Source of the DNA: Chthonomonadales bacterium
GTDB lineage: Bacteria; Armatimonadota; Chthonomonadetes; Chthonomonadales; Chthonomonadaceae
Assembly (NCBI GenBank): GCA_038217285.1
Contig: JBBQPO010000010.1
Coordinates: 1-49,994, forward strand
Direction of reading: 5' to 3'
Length of the DNA stretch: 49,994 bases
This document shows positions 12,640 through 26,353 of this stretch, one piece after another (the stretch's first letter is position 1; each line of letters begins with the position of its first letter). The notes below the pieces were generated by a model. It had not been told where the DNA came from. It did no database searches and was given only the letters and a program-made list of their open reading frames with translations. A program made the position numbers and the translations under genes.

Positions 12640-13416
12640 ATGCGCTCTCTTTCCTTGCGGGCTTCCGCTCGCTCTGGCTTTACGCTCATCGAGCTGCTTG
12701 TGGTAATCGCTATCATTGCGATCCTGGCAGCGATCCTCTTTCCTGTCTTCGCTCAGGCACGGGAAAAAGCGCGACAGACCGCCTGCCTCAGCAACCTGAA
12801 GCAGGTCGGCCTTGCGGTGCGCATGTATGTGCAGGACTATGACGAAACGCTGCCCCGCACCGAACTCGGCGGGGACGTAGACGCTGCCCACGAATACCTG
12901 TGGGGAGATATGCTCCAGCCCTACACGAAAAACTGGCAGATGCTGCAGTGTCCGAGCGCCAATCAGAAGATCGTCTTCAAGACGGGGATGACCACCTATA
13001 GCGAGCAGTGGACGTACAACTACGGTATCAACGATATTATCGCGGCCGCCTGCTCCTCCGCCGACGATCCTGCCTGCCGCCACATCGGTGTCGCAGGCCA
13101 GGCAGACGCGGCGATCAATACTCCGGCCTCGACTATTCTCATCGCCGACAATCTGCCCTCCGACACCGATACCGGCGACGGCGATAACATAACGCTCGGC
13201 CATGCCCGCCACGAGATCAACTGGCAATGGGGCAAACGCGATGCGACCCGGCTTTCCGTCGGAGGAAAATCGCAGGACGGCTACTCCCGCCACAGCGATG
13301 GATTCGTGTACGTCCTCGCGGACGGTCATTCGAAGTGGCGCAGACGGGAGAAGAGAGCCGATGGAACCTTCGCTTCTGGCACGCGCGACGAGGAGTGGCT
13401 GGCGAACCAGCCCTGA
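12640..13416 (+). CDS. Prepilin-type N-terminal cleavage/methylation protein, DUF1559 / H-X9-DG family
   Basis: [44 protein letters not shown]-terminal [27 protein letters not shown]. Confidence 0.93.
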
Positions 13417-14807: not shown

Positions 14808-17705
14808 TCAGGCAGGCGCAGAAACGTGGCAGCCGCGTTCTCCGATGAGCACGAAAGCAGCCCAGTGATAGGGATGGGGAAATCGACCCCGGACAGCCTG
14901 TTGCGCGCTCCGCAGCGCGGAGGCTTTCGACTGCCCCTGTAAGAGCCTCTCATAAAACTCCTGCATAAGAGCCGCCGTCGCCTCGTCATCGGCGGGCCAC
15001 AGGCTGGCGGCCACCGACCGCGCGCCCGCCGCCAGGAACCCGCGCACCAGCCCGAAAAGCTCGTCACCGGCCTCCGCGAGCGCTACGCCGGTCTGGCAGG
15101 CGGAAAGGGTCGCCAGGTCGCAGGAGAGCCGCAGGGCGTACAGATCGCGGGCGAGCAGCCAGCCGTCCGCCAACTGCAGCCCGGAAAACAGCGGGTTATC
15201 AGCGCGATACAGCGCGTGGGTCGCCAGATGCAGCAGCCGACAGTTACCGGCCTGGCCCTGCACCGCCGCGAGGGTCGCCGCCTCACCCTGCAACACATGC
15301 GCCCGAGGCAGCAGAGGTGCCAACTGCCTCACCTCTTCCGTCACCTGCTCGATGCCGGGCGCGGGCACACTGACAAGCAGCGCCTCGGCGTCGGCCCAGG
15401 AAGCGCCCTCCTCCGAGGTCGTCTGCTGCCTCTGTGCGCCCCGGTGCCAAAGCGCCGCACTGGGAGCGTAGCAGATCTCCCAACGATCCAGCGCGGACTG
15501 TGTGCCGTCGAAGAAAGCATGAAAGGGCAGGCCGTGCAGGACAGCATGCGGCACCACCACAATCTGTTCAGCCGTCAGCAGATCCGCGATGGGGCGCAGG
15601 AGCAGATCGTACAACTGGGTCAGAACGGCCTGCGCGTCGGCCTGAAACCGCTGCGCGTGCCGCTGCGAGAGTTCGCTGCCCCACCCGACCCGCTGCAACT
15701 GGTAGCGCATTCGAAGCGCAGCATGGTCCACCGCTTCCAGGCAGGCGACATTCCAGCGGAAATGCACCTGCTGCGGAGTGACGATCCAGACGCATACGGA
15801 GCCATCGATGATATAGTACACCACTAACGCCTCGTTCGCGTGTAACGGCCTGGCGAGTTCTTGCGTGGCGACGATTTCGGGAAGGGTAAACAGGCCGCGC
15901 GACGCGTAGGGCTCGTCTCCTTCCCGGCGCAACAGATCGGCGTACTCCTGCTCCAGAGCGTTGAGGGAGGCGGCGTCCTCCACACCCGCCACGCCCATGC
16001 GCCTCGCCTCGCTCTCCTCCAGGGTGTTCAGGCTGCGGTAGCCCCGGCTCAGTTCGGCGCGCAGAACCGCCAGCCGCTCCTGCGCCTGCGGCGGCAGAGC
16101 ACCCTTCGCCAGAGGTCGTCCGTCCAGCGCCGCCTGCACGTGCTCTAGCAGCAGGCGAGACTTGGCCCGCTCCACATACTCGAGCGCCTGGGCGATGTCC
16201 TGTGTGCTCCCACGCGCCAGGAGGGCGCCCACCGTCTCTTCGTAGATGGCAAGCTTGTCGCGCAGAAACGAAACGTGCATCTCCTCCGGCGCGATAAGTG
16301 TACGCGCCTGCTCCAACGCCTCCACGCCAGCCCGCAGGTGATGCAGGCCGCGCCCGGCGTTCCCTTTCGCCAGGTAGTGCCGTCCCAGTGCGCGCTCCGC
16401 CTGACACTCCAGCCAGCCGCGCGCGGTCGCCCGCGCCGTTCTCCGCACCGCATGTAGGGACCGCGAGGCGTCGCCGCCCTCCTCGCCTGCCATCTCCGCG
16501 AGCAGCAGCCGCGCCTCCGCCGCCCATCCGCGCAGGCCGCTGCGCGTCAGCGTTCGATCCGCTCGCCGCGCTTCCTGCTGCGCCGCCGCCGTCTGTCCGT
16601 TCCGGCGGAGCAGACGGGCGCGCAGCAGACGCACATGCGCCTGCTGGGTGGCGTTGCCGTTCGTGGCGAAGAGCTGGTCCGCCCGATCCAACCCCGCCAG
16701 GGCCTCTTCGAACTGTTCCTGCGCGATGTGGACGGAGGCGCGCCCTAGCTCGACGCGGGCGCGCTCATAAGCGATCCCCCGTGCTTGCAGCTCGCCAGCG
16801 GCCCGTGCGTAGGCTTCCTGCGCTTCGGGATAGAGGTTCAGTTCCCGGTAGGCTTCGGCCATGTCCGCATCGCACTTGGCCGCGTCCAGTGTCTGACCTC
16901 GCGCCGTAAACTCCTCGCGCGCCCGCTGCAAGGCGGTGATCGCCTGCGCGTAGCGCCCGGAAAGATAGTGAAGAAACCCGACGTTGGCATCGATCTTTGC
17001 GGCGGGCGTCAGCATCGCATGCGCCGCGAAGGTGGCGCGCGCCTGCTCGAAGAGGGCGATCGCCTCGTCCACGCGGTGCAGTTCCATCAGCACGGCGGCC
17101 ACATTGGTCTGCACGGTCGCCTGCGCGACGTCCTCCCCGCTCCGGGTCAGCGTCTCCAGGGCGCGCTCATAACAGGCGAGGGCCAGGGCGTACTGATCGC
17201 GTCGATAGTGGAGCGAGCCGAGATTGACCAGGACTTTGGCGGCGTCCGTCTCCTCGCCATGCGCGCGCAGCTCGGTTTCAAGCCGACGCGCCAGCGCGAT
17301 AGCCTCGTCATAACGCCCCAGCCAGTTCAGCGAGTCGACGCGCCCGATCTGCACCTGCGCCGCCAGACAAGAGTCCCTCACCTGCAGGGCGCAAGTCGCC
17401 GCAGTTTCCAGAACCGTGACGGCGACCGCATGGTCGCCCTGAACACGCAGGGCCTGCCCGACCAGTCGCCATGCCTGCGCCGCGCCCCTGCCATCCCCGC
17501 CCCGTGCGGCGAGGTCCGCGGCAAGCCGCGCCCGCGCCGTAGTCTCGCTCGCATCGGCGCTCAGTCGTTCCCGCGCCGACTGAATCAGATACGGCACGGA
17601 CTCGGGCAGAGCGGCGGCCTGCTGCAGCAGGGATTCTCGATCCGGCGACTCCGGCAGTTCCAGCAGGCGCTCGCACAGCGATGCGGCGGACGGGTCGCCT
17701 CTCAC
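14808..17705 (-). CDS. TPR-CHAT (caspase-like cysteine protease) protein
   Basis: Long TPR array, ERAKSRLL, VVVPHAVLHGLPF, LHLATHA (catalytic His), LSACQTG (catalytic Cys), ASLWPADD, HPYHWAAF. Confidence 0.95.
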   Translation of the reverse strand: MRGDPSAASLCERLLELPESPDRESLLQQAAALPESVPYLIQSARERLSADASETTARARLAADLAARGGDGRGAAQAWRLVGQALRVQGDHAVAVTVLETAATCALQVRDSCLAAQVQIGRVDSLNWLGRYDEAIALARRLETELRAHGEETDAAKVLVNLGSLHYRRDQYALALACYERALETLTRSGEDVAQATVQTNVAAVLMELHRVDEAIALFEQARATFAAHAMLTPAAKIDANVGFLHYLSGRYAQAITALQRAREEFTARGQTLDAAKCDADMAEAYRELNLYPEAQEAYARAAGELQARGIAYERARVELGRASVHIAQEQFEEALAGLDRADQLFATNGNATQQAHVRLLRARLLRRNGQTAAAQQEARRADRTLTRSGLRGWAAEARLLLAEMAGEEGGDASRSLHAVRRTARATARGWLECQAERALGRHYLAKGNAGRGLHHLRAGVEALEQARTLIAPEEMHVSFLRDKLAIYEETVGALLARGSTQDIAQALEYVERAKSRLLLEHVQAALDGRPLAKGALPPQAQERLAVLRAELSRGYRSLNTLEESEARRMGVAGVEDAASLNALEQEYADLLRREGDEPYASRGLFTLPEIVATQELARPLHANEALVVYYIIDGSVCVWIVTPQQVHFRWNVACLEAVDHAALRMRYQLQRVGWGSELSQRHAQRFQADAQAVLTQLYDLLLRPIADLLTAEQIVVVPHAVLHGLPFHAFFDGTQSALDRWEICYAPSAALWHRGAQRQQTTSEEGASWADAEALLVSVPAPGIEQVTEEVRQLAPLLPRAHVLQGEAATLAAVQGQAGNCRLLHLATHALYRADNPLFSGLQLADGWLLARDLYALRLSCDLATLSACQTGVALAEAGDELFGLVRGFLAAGARSVAASLWPADDEATAALMQEFYERLLQGQSKASALRSAQQAVRGRFPHPYHWAAFVLIGERGCHVSAPA

Positions 17706-19865: not shown

Positions 19866-20492
19866 TCAATAGTCAAGCTGCTGAAGGATCTTGCGGAGGC
19901 TGCTTAAACAGCGGGCACGGGTGGGTCCGATGCTGCCGACCGGCAGAGAGAGCTTCTCGGCGAGCTCTTGATAACTGAAGGGACTGTCGGTCGCATAGAG
20001 ATTCAGAAGGAGTTCGCGACAGCGATCCGGTAGGCGCATGACGGCTTCGCGCATCAGTTGCTGCTCTTCCAACGCCATGACCCCCGCCTCCGGGTCTCCT
20101 GCTCCCTGCTGGGGATGCAGGCTTACCGCGTTTTCCATCTCCCAGGCGCCGTCACCCAGTTCTGAGGCGAGGCTGACATTCCGCCTTCGCGCCACCCGCC
20201 ATACCTCGCGCTTGGTGGTAGAGATAAGCCAACTGGAAAGCTTGGTCGTATCCCGCACACCCGCCAGGTGATTAAACAGAACGAGGCAGACGTCCTGGAA
20301 TATATCCTCGGTATCCGCGTGCGAAACCCCCATGCGCAGGCATACGGAAAAGACCAGGGCTGCATAGCGGTCGATAAGCGCATCCCAGGCGGCTTTCTCG
20401 CCCGCCAGACAGGCCGAAATCAGATCCTGGTCCGAGGCGAGGCGATAAGACGAGGCTGTCGGCTCCTTTTTTTTGAAGGGCACATAGGGCAT
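19866..20492 (-). CDS. ECF RNA polymerase sigma factor
   Basis: SDQDLISACLAGEKAAWDALIDRY, DTEDIFQDV, SWLISTTKRE (region 2); LPDRCRELL...SYQELAEKLSLPVGSIGPTRARCL (region 4). Confidence 0.93.
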   Translation of the reverse strand: MPYVPFKKKEPTASSYRLASDQDLISACLAGEKAAWDALIDRYAALVFSVCLRMGVSHADTEDIFQDVCLVLFNHLAGVRDTTKLSSWLISTTKREVWRVARRRNVSLASELGDGAWEMENAVSLHPQQGAGDPEAGVMALEEQQLMREAVMRLPDRCRELLLNLYATDSPFSYQELAEKLSLPVGSIGPTRARCLSSLRKILQQLDY

Positions 20493-22107: not shown

Positions 22108-22272
22108 TCGGTAGGCGGCGGGAACCTGCTCGGATTTTTCCGGCATTCAGGCCCGTTCCCTGTCACGCTGCGTGTGCGCGTACGTTTTCTCTCTCTAAGC
22201 CGGAAGTCCAAGATCAGTCGCTTCCGTGCATGTTGTCAGCGCCCGACAACCGTTTCTTTAGAGGAGAAAGCC

Positions 22273-22731
22273 ATGAAAATCAGACATTCTGGGTGGACTG
22301 CCCTTCTGGGCGCGAGCGCTTTGCTGCTCGTCGTAGGCGTCAAGCCCGCCTACGCGCATGATGACGATGGTCACGATCAGATCCATAACAGGTTGGACCA
22401 GCATCACGATGACCTGCATAACCACCTGGATCAGAAGCACGACACCGCCCACGACCGCCTGGACCAGAAGCACCAGCGTGACCATGCTCGCCTGGAGCGG
22501 GAGCATCAGCGCTGGCACCAGCACAACGATAACCGAGACTGGGATAACGCCGACTATCAGGCCGCCCATGATCGTCTGCATGACCATCAGGATCAAAAGC
22601 ACGATCGTCAGCACCAGCAGCTCGACCGGCAGCACGACCGCGCCCATCAGCAAATCGACAGAGAGCACCAGCGTGCTCACACCTATATCGAAAACGATCA
22701 TCGCCGCTGGCATGAGGGCGATGACAACTAG
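22273..22731 (+). CDS. Secreted histidine-rich protein with 11-residue repeats
   Basis: RBS GAGGAG; signal peptide ending PAYA; two blocks of (HxxxHxxL/IDxx)4-HxRWH. Confidence 0.88.
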   Translation: MKIRHSGWTALLGASALLLVVGVKPAYAHDDDGHDQIHNRLDQHHDDLHNHLDQKHDTAHDRLDQKHQRDHARLEREHQRWHQHNDNRDWDNADYQAAHDRLHDHQDQKHDRQHQQLDRQHDRAHQQIDREHQRAHTYIENDHRRWHEGDDN

Positions 22732-22783
22732 ACCGAGTGCGACAATTCGCATCGGAGGCACAGACGCCTCAGAAAGACCTAAC

Positions 22784-23059
22784 ATGAAAACCTGGATACT
22801 GGCTGCGGCGGCTTTCGCCACACTTTCGAGTATGGCCCTGGCCGCGCCGCCACATAAACATAAGCATACGATGGAGAAGGCGGCTCTGATCTGCCCGGTG
22901 ACAGGCGAGAAGATCGCTTCGACGAAGGCAGCCGTCGGCCATAGCGTCTACAAAGGCAAAACCTACTACTTCTGCTGCGCCGGATGCAAGCCGCGCTTCG
23001 ACAAAGACCCTGCCACCTTCGTCAAGCACTCGAAGGCAGGTAAGTTCGAGAAGATGTAG
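22784..23059 (+). CDS. Secreted YHS/TRASH domain protein
   Basis: Signal peptide ending ALA; CPVTG...YKGKTYYFCCAGCKPRFDKDP. Confidence 0.9.
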   Translation: MKTWILAAAAFATLSSMALAAPPHKHKHTMEKAALICPVTGEKIASTKAAVGHSVYKGKTYYFCCAGCKPRFDKDPATFVKHSKAGKFEKM

Positions 23060-23100
23060 GCATCGTGCCTCGTCGATAACGCCAAAGCAACTTGCACCAG

Positions 23101-23127
23101 ACAGGCCGGGAAATCCCGGCCTGTTTT
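23101..23127 (+). terminator. Intrinsic terminator
   Basis: ACAGGCCGGG-AAAT-CCCGGCCTGT-TTT. Confidence 0.8.
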
Positions 23128-23201
23128 GCTGTCTTCTCTGGCCGCATCGAGAGGATCACTCGCCCGCAAACGACGATCCAGGGCAACCGGCCTGGGCCAT
23201 G

Positions 23202-23245
23202 TTGACGCCATATCTCCGGCTCGCTATAATGTAACCACAGTTACA
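23202..23245 (+). promoter_or_regulatory. Sigma70 promoter of the octaheme gene with an overlapping palindromic operator
   Basis: TTGACG-17 bp-TATAAT (23202-23230), then TGTAAC-CACA-GTTACA (23230-23245). Confidence 0.75.
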
Positions 23246-23309
23246 AGAAAAGAACCCTGACAGAAAGGGCGTATCTCCACCGCCCGTTTTCCGAAGCCGG
23301 AGTGATCCT

Positions 23310-24551
23310 ATGAAGCGAACTCTGTTCATCAGTACCCTGTGTCTCGTCATCGCTATCTTTGTCGGTCCTCGACTCCTGGGCCAGAACCAGGCGTTGCCGG
23401 CCGATGCGGTTCTGCCGCACCTCGATCAGAGCCAGTACATCGGCTCGCAGAAGTGCGCCGAGTGCCACAAGACCTACTACGAGAGCTGGAAAGAGAGCGC
23501 GCACAATAAGATGATCCGGCCCGCCATCCTCAACGGTCCGGGTAAAACCGTCGTGGCCGATTTCAGCAAGGCCGATCCCAATCGTCCCTTCGAACTCAAG
23601 GATGTGAAATGGGTCATCGGGCATCGCTGGAAGCAGCGTTTCATCGGCGTCGTCAGTGGAGAAGAGGTCGTTTTCCCCGGCCAGTGGAGCATTAAGGAGC
23701 AGAAGTGGCAGCCGTATACGGGCAAGGCCGACTGGTGGTATCCGCAGCATCCGGACTGGAAGACACGTTCCAATTTCAAGCTCTGCGCCGGCTGCCATAG
23801 CACTGGTGTTGACATCGGCAAGGGAACCTGGACCGAGCAGAACATCACCTGCGAAAGCTGCCACGGCCCCGGCAAAGTCCATGCAGAAAAGCCGACTAGC
23901 GCCAACATCGTCAATCCGGCGCGCCTGAGTACGGAGCGCTCGATGGAGGTCTGTCTCGCCTGCCATCAGGCCGGCAGACCGGCAGGCAACGAATACGCCT
24001 GGGCGGTCGGCTATCAGCCCGGAAAGAAGCTCTCCGACTACTGGCATGGGTTTGAGCCGGAGCCGGGCAAGCAGACCTCCGAGTTCTGGGGCAACGGCAC
24101 GGCCCATAAGAACAGGATTCAGGGCAACACCTTCTCGCACAGCGTTATGCATGCAAGCGGAATCCAGTGCTCGAACTGCCACGATTCGCACGGGTCACGG
24201 AACCTCTCGATGACCGTCAAATCGGCCTCGACGAATGCGCTCTGCCTCTCCTGTCACGGACCGGGCAAGCAGGTCGGTCCGAACTTCACCACCCTTTCCG
24301 AACATACCCACCACGCCGCGACAAGCACGGGCAGTCAGTGTATCGGCTGCCATATGCCCAAGACCGGGGAGAACTCGGTCGGAGCAGAATCGAGAGACCA
24401 CACGTTCAACTTCGTCTCTCCTGCCGTTTCCATGAGCAAACCGGACGCGACCGGCAAGACCGTTCCCAATAGCTGCAACCTCTGCCATGCGGACAAAACA
24501 GCGGACTGGGCGCTCAAACAGACGAAAGAGTGGTATCCCAAACTCAAGTGA
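23310..24551 (+). CDS. Secreted octaheme c-type cytochrome (c554/paired-CXXCH-like family)
   Basis: Eight CxxCH: CAECH, CAGCH, CESCH, CLACH, CSNCH, CLSCH, CIGCH, CNLCH; signal peptide. Confidence 0.92.
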   Translation: MKRTLFISTLCLVIAIFVGPRLLGQNQALPADAVLPHLDQSQYIGSQKCAECHKTYYESWKESAHNKMIRPAILNGPGKTVVADFSKADPNRPFELKDVKWVIGHRWKQRFIGVVSGEEVVFPGQWSIKEQKWQPYTGKADWWYPQHPDWKTRSNFKLCAGCHSTGVDIGKGTWTEQNITCESCHGPGKVHAEKPTSANIVNPARLSTERSMEVCLACHQAGRPAGNEYAWAVGYQPGKKLSDYWHGFEPEPGKQTSEFWGNGTAHKNRIQGNTFSHSVMHASGIQCSNCHDSHGSRNLSMTVKSASTNALCLSCHGPGKQVGPNFTTLSEHTHHAATSTGSQCIGCHMPKTGENSVGAESRDHTFNFVSPAVSMSKPDATGKTVPNSCNLCHADKTADWALKQTKEWYPKLK

Positions 24552-24736
24552 CGACCGGACTCTCCGCCCCTTTTTTCTGATCGGCGGAGTCAATCAAGGC
24601 GGTGTCGCCACCGACGGCTACAACGGCCTCATCGACCTCGTGAACTTGCTTCCTCTCGAATATTCACCTTCTCCCCACACGCCGGCGGCAACCCTTTTTC
24701 TGAAGCGGCGCGGCGAGAGCGGACGTAGTGCGGGGT

Positions 24737-26353
24737 ATGAACTTCTCGATAAACCCGATGTGGTTGCCAACACTGCTTCTTGCGATCGCGCTCTGCGGGT
24801 TGGGATTCCGGCTTGCCGTAAGACCTGCCTCGCGCGGCGTCCGAAAGGCCGCCATGGCACTGGCGGTCGCAGCATCGGTGCCTGGTCTGCTGATGGCCCT
24901 CTACTATGCGCATTTGTTCGACCGGACGCTCTGGTTTTACGAGTTTCGGGCGACCCCTTACAGCGAACTGACTGCGGTCGGACTGGGATGGGCGGGCGGG
25001 GTGGTCCTGGGAACGCTATGGCGCGGCCCTTTGCGGAGCGGATCGAAGTCCTTTGCCTGGATCGTGACAGGCCTGATGCTGTTCTGCCTGACAGGGCTGC
25101 TACTGGCCCCGTATGCGAAGTCCGTGATCACCCCCTTGCGGACGGCGATGCTGGACCGCTGGACGAACGGCGTCTGCCTCCAGACCACCCCTTCGACCTG
25201 CGGCGCGGCCAGCGCCGCCACCCTGCTACACCGGTTCGGACGCGCCGGTACCGAGCAGGAGTTGGCCCGCGAGTGCTTTACCTACGGCAGCGGGACGGAG
25301 AACTGGTATGTGGTGCGCGCTCTGCGCAGTCGCGGCCTACAGGTGCGCGTGGTACTCTCCTCGCCCCTGTCGGCTCCCCTGCCTTTTCCGTGTATCGCCG
25401 GCACACAGTATGGCGGGCGCGGCGGCTCCGGCCATTTCATCACCCTGCTGGGTCAGCAGGACGGGCGCACGCTCGTCGGAGACCCAATAGGCGGCCTCTA
25501 CCTTCTGACCCCGGAGGAGATACGCTCCCGCTACTACCTGACAGGCTTCTTCCTGGTCGCCACAGATCCCCTGCACTCTCCGGCCGATCCGGGGTCGAAC
25601 TCATCCTCCGGAACCTCCCTGTCGCTCTATCACCTGCAGGGCGCTGTCGAGCCGCTCCGCTATCGCTCCCGAACGTTCGGCGGGATGCGGCGGATGCGCG
25701 TCTACACGCCGCCGGGTTACGATCCGAACGGCACGGTGCGCTACCCGACGCTCTATCTCTTGACCGGCTATCCCGGCGATGAAACCAACTGGACCGATGT
25801 CGGGAACGCGCACACCCTGCTCGACACGCTGATTACGACCCGACAGTGCGTCCCGATGCTCCTCGTCATGCCGGACAGCGACCTCTCCCGCTGACGCCAG
25901 GGGCATCGCAAGTTCGAGCGCGACCTGTTGACCGACATCCTTCCCCTGATAGAGAGCCGCTACCGTGTACGGACAGACGCCGACAGTCGGGCCATCGCGG
26001 GACTGTCGATGGGCGGTTTCTACTCTGTCGAAATCGGCCTCAATCATCCGGAGACGTTCGCCTGGATCGGAGTCTTCAGCGCGGGCCTGCGGAAGGATTT
26101 CGTCACCGAAGCAAACATCACCGGACTGCGCGAAAGGTCGAATGGGGCGGACCAACCTCCGAAATTGTTCTATCTGCGGATCGGAAAGCGAGATTTCTTT
26201 CTCCCCGACGCCCGCCACCTCGACCGCTGGCTGACCCAGAAGTCGGTCCCGCACCTCTATCAAGAGGTAGAAGGCACACACGAATGGCTCGTCTGGAAAG
26301 CCGCCCTCGCCGATTTCGCTCCCCGTCTCTTTAAGGCTAATCTTGTCCCTTAA
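24737..26353 (+). pseudogene. Membrane C39-like cysteine peptidase fused to an alpha/beta-hydrolase esterase, interrupted by an in-frame TGA at 25892-25894
   Basis: About four TM helices; QTTPSTCGAASAA...GHF...VGDP (C39 Cys/His/Asp); RVYTPPGY...YPTLYLL...LVMPD, then after TGA in the same frame FERDLLTDILPLIE...RAIAGLSMGG...GTHEW (esterase). Confidence 0.82.

Follow-up and report, generated by a model that had tools for sequence, protein, structure and literature searches.

A secreted protein with a hendecad histidine ladder encoded beside a YHS protein in a Chthonomonadales bacterium: a candidate metal sponge of the cell envelope

Organization of the locus

The DNA analysed here, hereafter the window, is a stretch of 49,994 nucleotides (nt) from a Chthonomonadales bacterium (contig JBBQPO010000010.1 of assembly GCA_038217285.1), a soil or sediment bacterium whose genome (G000) encodes Omp85, so that a periplasm is expected. 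Two adjacent genes of its forward strand are considered. The first one (22273-22728, stop codon at 22729-22731) encodes a protein of 152 amino acids (aa) whose His residues form a strictly periodic ladder and which we call the His-ladder protein; the second one encodes a YHS protein. By inspection, a signal peptide is present on both products. That of the His-ladder protein is of the Sec type and falls in the part of the AlphaFold2 model (residues 1-30) where the predicted local distance difference test (pLDDT) is below 50. For the mature chain of this protein, calculation gives a mass of 15.6 kDa, an isoelectric point (pI) of 6.0, a grand average of hydropathy (GRAVY) of -2.47 and a net charge that goes from +13.4 at pH 5 to -12.8 at pH 7.5.

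The mature chain (124 aa) contains 25 His, 26 Asp, 17 Gln and 15 Arg, and neither Cys nor Met. Ten HxxxH pairs follow one another at a strict spacing of 11 residues, five in each half of the chain, starting at residues 34, 45, 56, 67 and 78 and at residues 99, 110, 121, 132 and 143. In all ten pairs, an Asp, Glu or Asn is found at +8 of the start of the motif, i.e. four residues past the second His, and 22 of the 25 His have an Asp or Glu at +/-3 or 4. The final repeat of each half is an HxRWH cap. Since one half can be aligned with the other over 54 columns (BLOSUM62 score of 177), the protein corresponds to an internal duplication of four 11-mers followed by the cap. The Fourier power of His at period 11/3 was matched by 6 of 10000 composition-preserving shuffles, and at least ten HxxxH pairs arose in 46 of 10000. 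On its sequence, the chain is thus a hendecad (11/3) repeat, having an 11-residue periodicity with fixed core positions.

Differences from the orthologue of the same genus number 32, 26 and 68 at codon positions 1, 2 and 3, respectively, and substitutions relative to three orthologues pile up at third positions of the forward frame, which is therefore the coding one. An antisense open reading frame (ORF) of 187 aa (22258-22821) arises as a by-product of the His and Asp codons.

The product of the second gene matches PF04945 with 43.1 bits for a cut-off of 30.3 (E 4.3e-11; 43.6 bits in a whole-genome family scan), and it has 376 relatives at E <= 1e-5. It is a member of the YHS/TRASH proteins as described in PMC4626032, but is here free-standing, secreted and paired with the His-ladder protein. 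In that source, the YHS domain is reported as a probable copper sensor, and three Cys and one Asp are proposed as its ligands by analogy to TRASH. The residues Cys 36, 63, 64 and 67 and Asp 72/74 match this putative set, and the Cys are kept in the orthologues that were compared.

Neither a promoter-like nor a terminator-like site was detected between the two genes (22732-22783) by consensus scan or RNA folding. The terminator located after the YHS gene was missed by the consensus scan because its U run is only four long; two sub-threshold Rfam matches were obtained, one of them over this terminator (31.2 bits for a threshold of 59). The two genes thus look like one transcription unit, with both products apparently exported. 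The two small hairpins of the spacer might adjust the ratio between both products.

These data agree with an earlier note on this DNA, which had described about 25 His in a 124-residue mature chain, two copies of four 11-mers closed by HxRWH caps, a next gene encoding a secreted YHS protein and one terminator behind both genes. Coordinates of all features are given in Table 1.

Table 1. Features of the His-ladder/YHS locus (positions in the window)
Feature	Position	Strand	Basis
Promoter-like element TGTCAC-N16-CGTTT	22161..22187	+	same relative place upstream of 7/7 full-length family genes
First predicted leader hairpin, arms CGGAAG / CTTCCG	22199..22229	+	RNA fold of 22196-22275
Second leader hairpin GTTGTC-N7-GACAAC, CAGCGCCC in its loop	22232..22250	+	RNA fold, leader alignment
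Shine-Dalgarno-like AGAGGAG	22260..22266	+	6 nt before ATG, read from the sequence
Signal peptide of the His-ladder protein, residues 1-28	22273..22356	+	basic N-terminus, hydrophobic core, AxA site (by inspection)
Mature His/Asp-rich chain, predicted hendecad hairpin	22357..22731 (stop codon included)	+	composition, repeats, AlphaFold2
Spacer between the two genes, 52 nt, two small hairpins, no U run	22732..22783	+	RNA fold -17.2 kcal/mol, z -4.3
Secreted single-domain YHS protein, 91 aa, four Cys	22784..23059 (coding 22784-23056 + stop)	+	PF04945
Intrinsic terminator, GC-rich stem then UUUU	~23099..23130	+	-26.1 kcal/mol, z -4.4, 0/200 shuffles as stable

Predicted structure of the His-ladder protein

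AlphaFold2, run with an alignment of 11 rows, predicts two helices (residues 32-85 and 92-149) joined by a loop (residues 86-91), with a mean pLDDT of 83.3 and 104 residues at 90 or above. The same hairpin is predicted for the orthologue of genome G023 (43% identical; 14 rows), with helices at residues 32-86 and 94-156 and a pLDDT of 85.0. Since structure matches span both helices of known antiparallel hairpins at a root-mean-square deviation (rmsd) of 2.4-3.1 Å, the model is a hairpin. The helical hairpin with a short loop between its halves that had been proposed from the sequence is therefore also what the models give.

Beyond this general shape, structural comparison was uninformative. Foldseek found no match to the model at E <= 1e-3 in PDB, and a wide search with VIA-align gave a best Z of 10.3, all matches being generic long hairpins under the noise level of helical proteins (about 13). 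An antifreeze hairpin made of 11-mer repeats (4ke2) can be aligned over 128 residues with a Z of 9.4 and an rmsd of 4.4, and numerous unrelated hairpins score equally well. The best score in ESM Atlas was 0.87, for unnamed clusters that are leads only. A homodimer prediction carried out without controls on two copies of residues 29-152 returned a score of 0.00, a result that counts as no answer.

In the hendecad register, His occupies positions a and e, Leu or Ile position h and Asp or Glu position i, position d being mixed. Helical-wheel arithmetic (11/3, 98.2 degrees per residue) places d, h, a, e and i at -65, -33, 0, +33 and +65 degrees, respectively. A thin hydrophobic seam (d, h), a row of His-His pairs and a row of carboxylates would hence lie side by side on one face of each helix, the His row running beside the seam and not replacing it. 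Along the hairpin, the HxxxH sites would be about 16 Å apart. This arrangement lends no support to the His-lined core of the earlier note, nor does the spacing to its metal wire, and the YHS protein as a chaperone that feeds the hairpin is likewise a hypothesis.

A rare family with constrained histidines

The His-ladder protein belongs to no family of Pfam or NCBIfam and has no counterpart in PDB. At E <= 1, only weak, sub-cut-off matches to unrelated families were obtained in Pfam and NCBIfam; the Spy/CpxP/ZraP (LTXXQ) families are absent from the Pfam matches at this threshold, the match to Apolipoprotein is far under its cut-off (14.8 bits for 90) and no LEA family is listed. The sole match by sequence in PDB has an E value of 0.86, i.e. 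no relative was found there. The only name given to relatives is "hypothetical protein". In the literature search, which took in few subscription journals, no paper was found on a His hendecad hairpin or on the pairing of YHS and His-ladder proteins.

A word-index search with the single sequence scored none of 56 candidates, and a profile search for relatives gave six proteins. An exhaustive HMMER search gave 12 matches at E <= 1e-3 and none at 1e-10; seven of them bear the HxxxH ladder by reading, and the other five are proteins with Arg/Asp/Lys 11-mer repeats and without ladder. Among 60 related genomes, six contain a relative of the His-ladder protein, which in one case is a 46-residue remnant. 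Across the phylum, the family occurs in 6 of the 401 genomes sampled, including that of the window, and a handful of metagenome proteins also belong to it. The protein is thus striking yet rare. Moreover, close relatives of the whole unit, from promoter to terminator, are present on DNA contigs of two other studies. One RNA run shares words with the unit, but it covers the conserved YHS core of other organisms and a 36-nt piece with 5 mismatches, and so gives no locus-specific evidence of expression.

Across 11 members of the family, position a is His in 90-94% of the repeats and position e in 89-92%; position h is Leu or Ile in about 90% and position i is Asp, Glu or Asn in about 80%. Orthologues having 61-68% identity keep 19-21 of the 25 mature His, and third codon positions vary freely. 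The His positions are therefore under strong constraint. By contrast, the number of repeats varies, down to two or three per helix in short forms, and Gly/Tyr-rich tails occur in some members.

Association with YHS genes and copper genes

Flanks could be read at seven full-length loci (genomes G000, G002, G036, G053, G018, G023 and G129); a metagenome contig that carries another member ends at the gene. The YHS gene lies directly downstream of the His-ladder gene in G000, G002 and G036 and is divergently adjacent in G053. Hence, the co-occurrence with YHS that the earlier note had put forward as a check is seen at four of the seven readable loci and fails at the three others (G018, G023 and G129).

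Several of these neighbourhoods include copper genes. In G018, the His-ladder gene is located 1.3 kb from a gene encoding a P-type ATPase with an HMA domain (TIGR01511, 628.7 bits for a cut-off of 397), and the ATPases in the flanks of relatives exceed the NCBIfam cut-off of the copper-translocating subfamily. In G053, a multicopper oxidase gene starts 1.2 kb downstream and a YtkA-domain protein is also encoded. Furthermore, copper or metal-efflux genes occur in the fetched flanks of 8 of 12 places that harbor close YHS orthologues (E < 1e-20). These neighbours include a CsoR-like repressor with a copper ATPase, a multicopper oxidase with YtkA, and RND pumps, of which the adaptor bears a cupredoxin-like domain and the permease is not clearly of the CusA type.

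Two other loci deserve mention. In G001 (L021, contig C504, ~1700-2260), a truncated His-ladder gene reads in frame for about 46 residues, then goes out of frame and is followed by a YHS gene; this pair sits among genes encoding a DUF305 protein, a cation-efflux protein and a copper-type P-type ATPase with cupredoxin and HMA domains. In G027 (L028:373-996), a YHS domain comes after some 130 residues of Arg/Ser/Glu/Gln-rich repeats in one fusion protein, and the next gene (L028:1111-1614), which has the CAGCGCCC leader motif, encodes a divergent secreted Gly/Tyr-rich protein that ends in His/Asp/Arg 11-mers.

A promoter and leader signature shared with other secreted proteins

The analysis also revealed a regulatory signature that was absent from the earlier note. 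Upstream of all seven full-length family genes, a promoter-like element with the form TGTCAC-N16-CGTnT is present; we take it to resemble the -35 and -10 elements of promoters recognized by extracytoplasmic function (ECF) sigma factors. In the window, transcription is predicted to start at about 22192-22196. In the window, the leader motif CAGCGCCC (22237-22244) ends 28 nt before the start codon; it is invariant in the seven aligned leaders, 26-36 nt ahead of the start codon. The arms of the first leader hairpin are kept in G002, G018 and G023, but, taken as a whole, the leader does not exceed shuffles significantly in stability (z -1.7). Most of the 15 folded instances of CAGCGCCC are enclosed by a stem of varying sequence. 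Since three of them have no enclosing stem and the motif would lie at the extreme 5' end of short leaders, we do not claim a defined RNA structure; the composite signature has no match in Rfam.

In 61 related genomes, the composite signature, in which CAGCGCCC comes 8-68 nt after TGTCAC-N16-CGT, gave 22 matches, versus 2 for reversed-pattern controls, whereas the genome of the window shows no enrichment of the promoter motif by itself (14 occurrences for 9.5 expected). The genes behind the 22 matches encode seven His-ladder proteins (one a remnant), two FecR+DUF6600 proteins, four small peptides and five charged proteins, four being unclear. On this pattern, the signature marks a candidate regulon or leader element in Chthonomonadales genomes. 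Signal peptides and N-termini of the signature proteins align with those of the His-ladder protein (hhalign probability of 77%), but their mature parts show no detectable homology to its mature chain. No YHS gene lies within about 1.5 kb of the 14 loci that encode non-His proteins behind the same signature.

The proteins of this set are diverse. In G000, the only other gene having both the promoter and the leader motif, at a longer spacing, is on contig C9 (L033:451-2775; signature at ~12850-13050) and encodes a secreted FecR+DUF6600 protein of 775 aa, which has a long tail rich in Gly, Ser and Arg; its orthologues in G034 and G019 also bear the signature. Small secreted proteins of 58-72 aa without Pfam family are encoded in four genomes (L044:1604-1804, L039:1607-1780, L045:1604-1819 and L046:1255-1464); their basic N-terminus is followed by a hydrophobic segment, the conserved G(T/I)ETHG motif and then a Pro-rich tail. 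Five secreted proteins of 101-160 aa (L047:1587-1925, L048:620-979, L055:1585-2064, L051:1166-1468 and L052:390-746) are rich in Asp and Arg (and in some cases His, Tyr or Cys), with neither Pfam family nor YHS neighbour. In G053, a second set of promoter, leader and signal peptide (L019:1605-1700) followed by an ORF of 31 codons only is found 300 nt past the His-ladder gene, ahead of the multicopper oxidase gene, and looks like a duplicated and decayed 5' module.

The conserved promoter and leader suggest that the His-ladder gene is probably regulated by an alternative, ECF-like sigma factor. The cognate factor was not found: none of the 47 genes of the sigma-70 family in the genome has the motif within 500 nt upstream. 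An ECF-type sigma gene (19866-20492) lies on the opposite strand, 1.8 kb upstream of the His-ladder/YHS pair, and the distribution of its orthologues shows no clean correspondence with that of the His-ladder family.

Possible function of the His-ladder protein

Taken together, the export of the protein, the predicted hairpin, the constraint on its His and the copper neighbourhoods of the YHS orthologues make a metal-related role the best reading, one built on genomic context and residue chemistry. The periplasmic metal protein proposed in the earlier note thus gains partial support from these lines, and metal binding itself is what we infer from them. We tentatively favour an envelope sponge for divalent metals, probably for Cu(II), a proposal whose chances we put slightly below even.

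In this proposal, the His-ladder and YHS genes would form an operon for metal handling in the cell envelope. Each helix would present a straight ladder of five H-x3-H-x3-D/E triads beside the hydrophobic seam, and divalent ions would bridge the triads within a helix and across the antiparallel hairpin. Cu(II) would be the likeliest ion, Zn(II) and Ni(II) being possible. Binding would neutralise, cross-link and staple the hairpin shut, for a load of about 5-10 ions per chain. In general, a lack of Met and Cys disfavours Cu(I) and Ag(I); having neither residue, the hairpin itself would be unsuited to these ions, and the Cys-based YHS partner would probably handle the soft Cu(I) form. A more precise version of this model, which we regard as possible but rather unlikely, would have five inter-helix sites about 16 Å apart, each made of two HxxxH pairs and carboxylates and forming only with metal, so as to provide a cooperative, switch-like buffer of Cu(II) (or Zn/Ni) coupled to a Cys-based YHS carrier of Cu(I); it would also include an undescribed Chthonomonadales regulon of secreted charged proteins defined by the ECF-like promoter and CAGCGCCC at a fixed distance from the start codon.

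Known systems provide partial parallels. According to PMC5008109, SilE, a His/Met protein of the periplasm, lacks order in its free state and becomes folded once about six Ag+ are bound, which gives a precedent for a sponge of this kind. Like SilE and PcoE, for which a gain of helix on binding several ions is proposed, the His-ladder protein is small, exported, His-rich and, at some loci, encoded with metal-resistance genes. However, it has no sequence-family match to them in Pfam or NCBIfam, and its strict 11-residue ladder and long predicted hairpin differ from their irregular disordered chains. Moreover, SilE uses His and Met motifs for Ag(I)/Cu(I), whereas the mature His-ladder chain is devoid of Met and Cys. 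The proteins Csp1 and Csp3 are Cys-lined four-helix bundles that store Cu(I). They resemble the proposed sponge in being helical, with metal ligands lined along the helices and many ions held, but the His-ladder protein has no Cys, two predicted helices only and putative His/Asp ligands.

The His ladder has an unusually regular architecture, and its regulatory signature is a previously undescribed one. If metal is bound as proposed, the protein would be a third independent design of envelope metal buffer, after the disordered His/Met sponge and the Cys-lined storage bundle, with ligands at fixed hendecad positions on a type of scaffold that protein designers build deliberately. Such a natural example would be useful for studies of metal-driven folding and for biosorption. 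It would also provide a partner for free-standing secreted YHS proteins and place them in a context; this group is common, as the number of relatives indicates, but has received little study. Furthermore, the signature of promoter and leader provides an entry point to a stress regulon not known so far, in a phylum about which little is known.

Several points weigh against the metal sponge. A hairpin with a single Leu every 11 residues may lack stability as a monomer, and the AlphaFold2 confidence may be inflated by a periodic low-complexity sequence and by alignments of 11-14 rows. As mentioned above, the YHS gene is missing at three of seven full-length loci. No copper gene was seen in the flanks examined for the window, G002, G036, G023 and G129, and the copper island of the window's own genome (triple-YHS protein, multicopper oxidase, YtkA, CsoR, HMA ATPase and HMA protein) is on another contig, C31, apart from the His-ladder/YHS pair. 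The charge flip from +13 to -13 between pH 5 and pH 7.5 fits a pH-driven role equally well. Lastly, the promoter, the leader motif and the signal peptide are common to the His-ladder gene and to genes of secreted Asp/Arg-rich proteins with little or no His, and what unites this set may be something other than metal binding.

Since the signature is common to secreted charged proteins without His or YHS, this last point opens the way to a non-metal function. The protein could be an envelope protectant related to hydrophilins or late embryogenesis abundant (LEA) proteins, one of a regulon of secreted, hydrophilic, charged helical proteins acting against desiccation, freezing and ionic stress. His would then be just one flavour of charged residue, the YHS adjacency a secondary specialisation and metal binding incidental. 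Such a function would account for the five Asp/Arg(/His/Tyr)-rich proteins, the four small peptides, the two FecR+DUF6600 proteins and the one of the window's own genome that are preceded by the signature, as well as for the alignment of the signal peptides and the very low GRAVY. An 11-residue periodicity is, moreover, the hallmark of group-3 LEA and apolipoprotein helices, a likeness extended by the extreme hydrophilicity of the protein, by its weak Apolipoprotein match and by the presence of 4ke2 among the tied fold matches. However, this last match has a Z within the range that is uninformative for long helices, the family matches are sub-threshold, and the chain is rich in His and Asp and not in Lys, Glu, Ala and Thr. 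The His at a and e, conserved at about 90%, go far past the needs of a generic charged surface, the YHS adjacency is confined to the His-rich branch (0 of the 14 other loci), and only the signal peptide, not the mature region, aligns with the other charged proteins. A protectant thus appears unlikely, although it is the main alternative.

A pH-switched periplasmic buffer or acid-stress chaperone, in which protonation of His would fold or unfold the hairpin through ladders of salt bridges, seems a little less likely again. It would agree with the pI of 6.0, with the charge flip, with the proximity of Asp or Glu to 22 of the 25 His and with a promoter that may resemble those of envelope-stress (ECF) regulation, but it leaves both the link to a Cys-rich YHS protein and the copper genes of relatives unexplained. 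To our knowledge, periplasmic acid chaperones are not His ladders. Spy, CpxP and ZraP are periplasmic helical hairpins regulated by envelope stress, ZraP being linked to zinc. The His-ladder protein differs from them by the absence of family match at E <= 1 and of LTxxQ motifs, by its much higher His content and by its hendecad register.

Metal could also be held under scarcity, the protein being a reservoir or shuttle for zinc or nickel and not a detoxification device. Ligands of the His/Asp type are as suitable for Zn(II) and Ni(II) as for Cu(II), His-rich stretches are found in periplasmic zinc-uptake proteins and in nickel-storage proteins such as Hpn, and the window has no efflux gene. 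We consider acquisition or storage improbable nonetheless, for the genes around the family in relatives encode exporters, oxidases and a CsoR-like repressor instead of uptake systems, and the flanks examined showed no metal uptake gene of the ABC type. As for a haem-binding or electron-transfer scaffold that would work with the multihaem cytochrome c encoded 250 nt downstream (23310-24551), which matches several cytochrome c families of Pfam, helical bundles that ligate haem through two His are familiar, but the cytochrome gene lies past the terminator with its own promoter, no multihaem ORF was flagged at six other loci of relatives (L002-L007) and no cytochrome family occurs in their flanks, which makes this function very improbable. 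The sponge for divalent metals therefore remains the reading that we prefer.

Other genes of the window

The cytochrome gene (region 23202-24551), of which the product has 413 aa and matches the Paired_CXXCH, c554 and MtrC-like families, is preceded by a near-consensus promoter of the sigma-70 type (11 of 12 matches); in relatives, it is not conserved beside the His-ladder family. Further downstream, one ORF (24728-25894) encodes a Peptidase_C39 domain and the start of an esterase domain, the remainder of which is encoded by the following ORF (25928-26353); the two may be a frameshifted or split gene. Upstream of the His-ladder gene, a large gene (14808-17705) encodes a TPR-CHAT protein of 965 aa.

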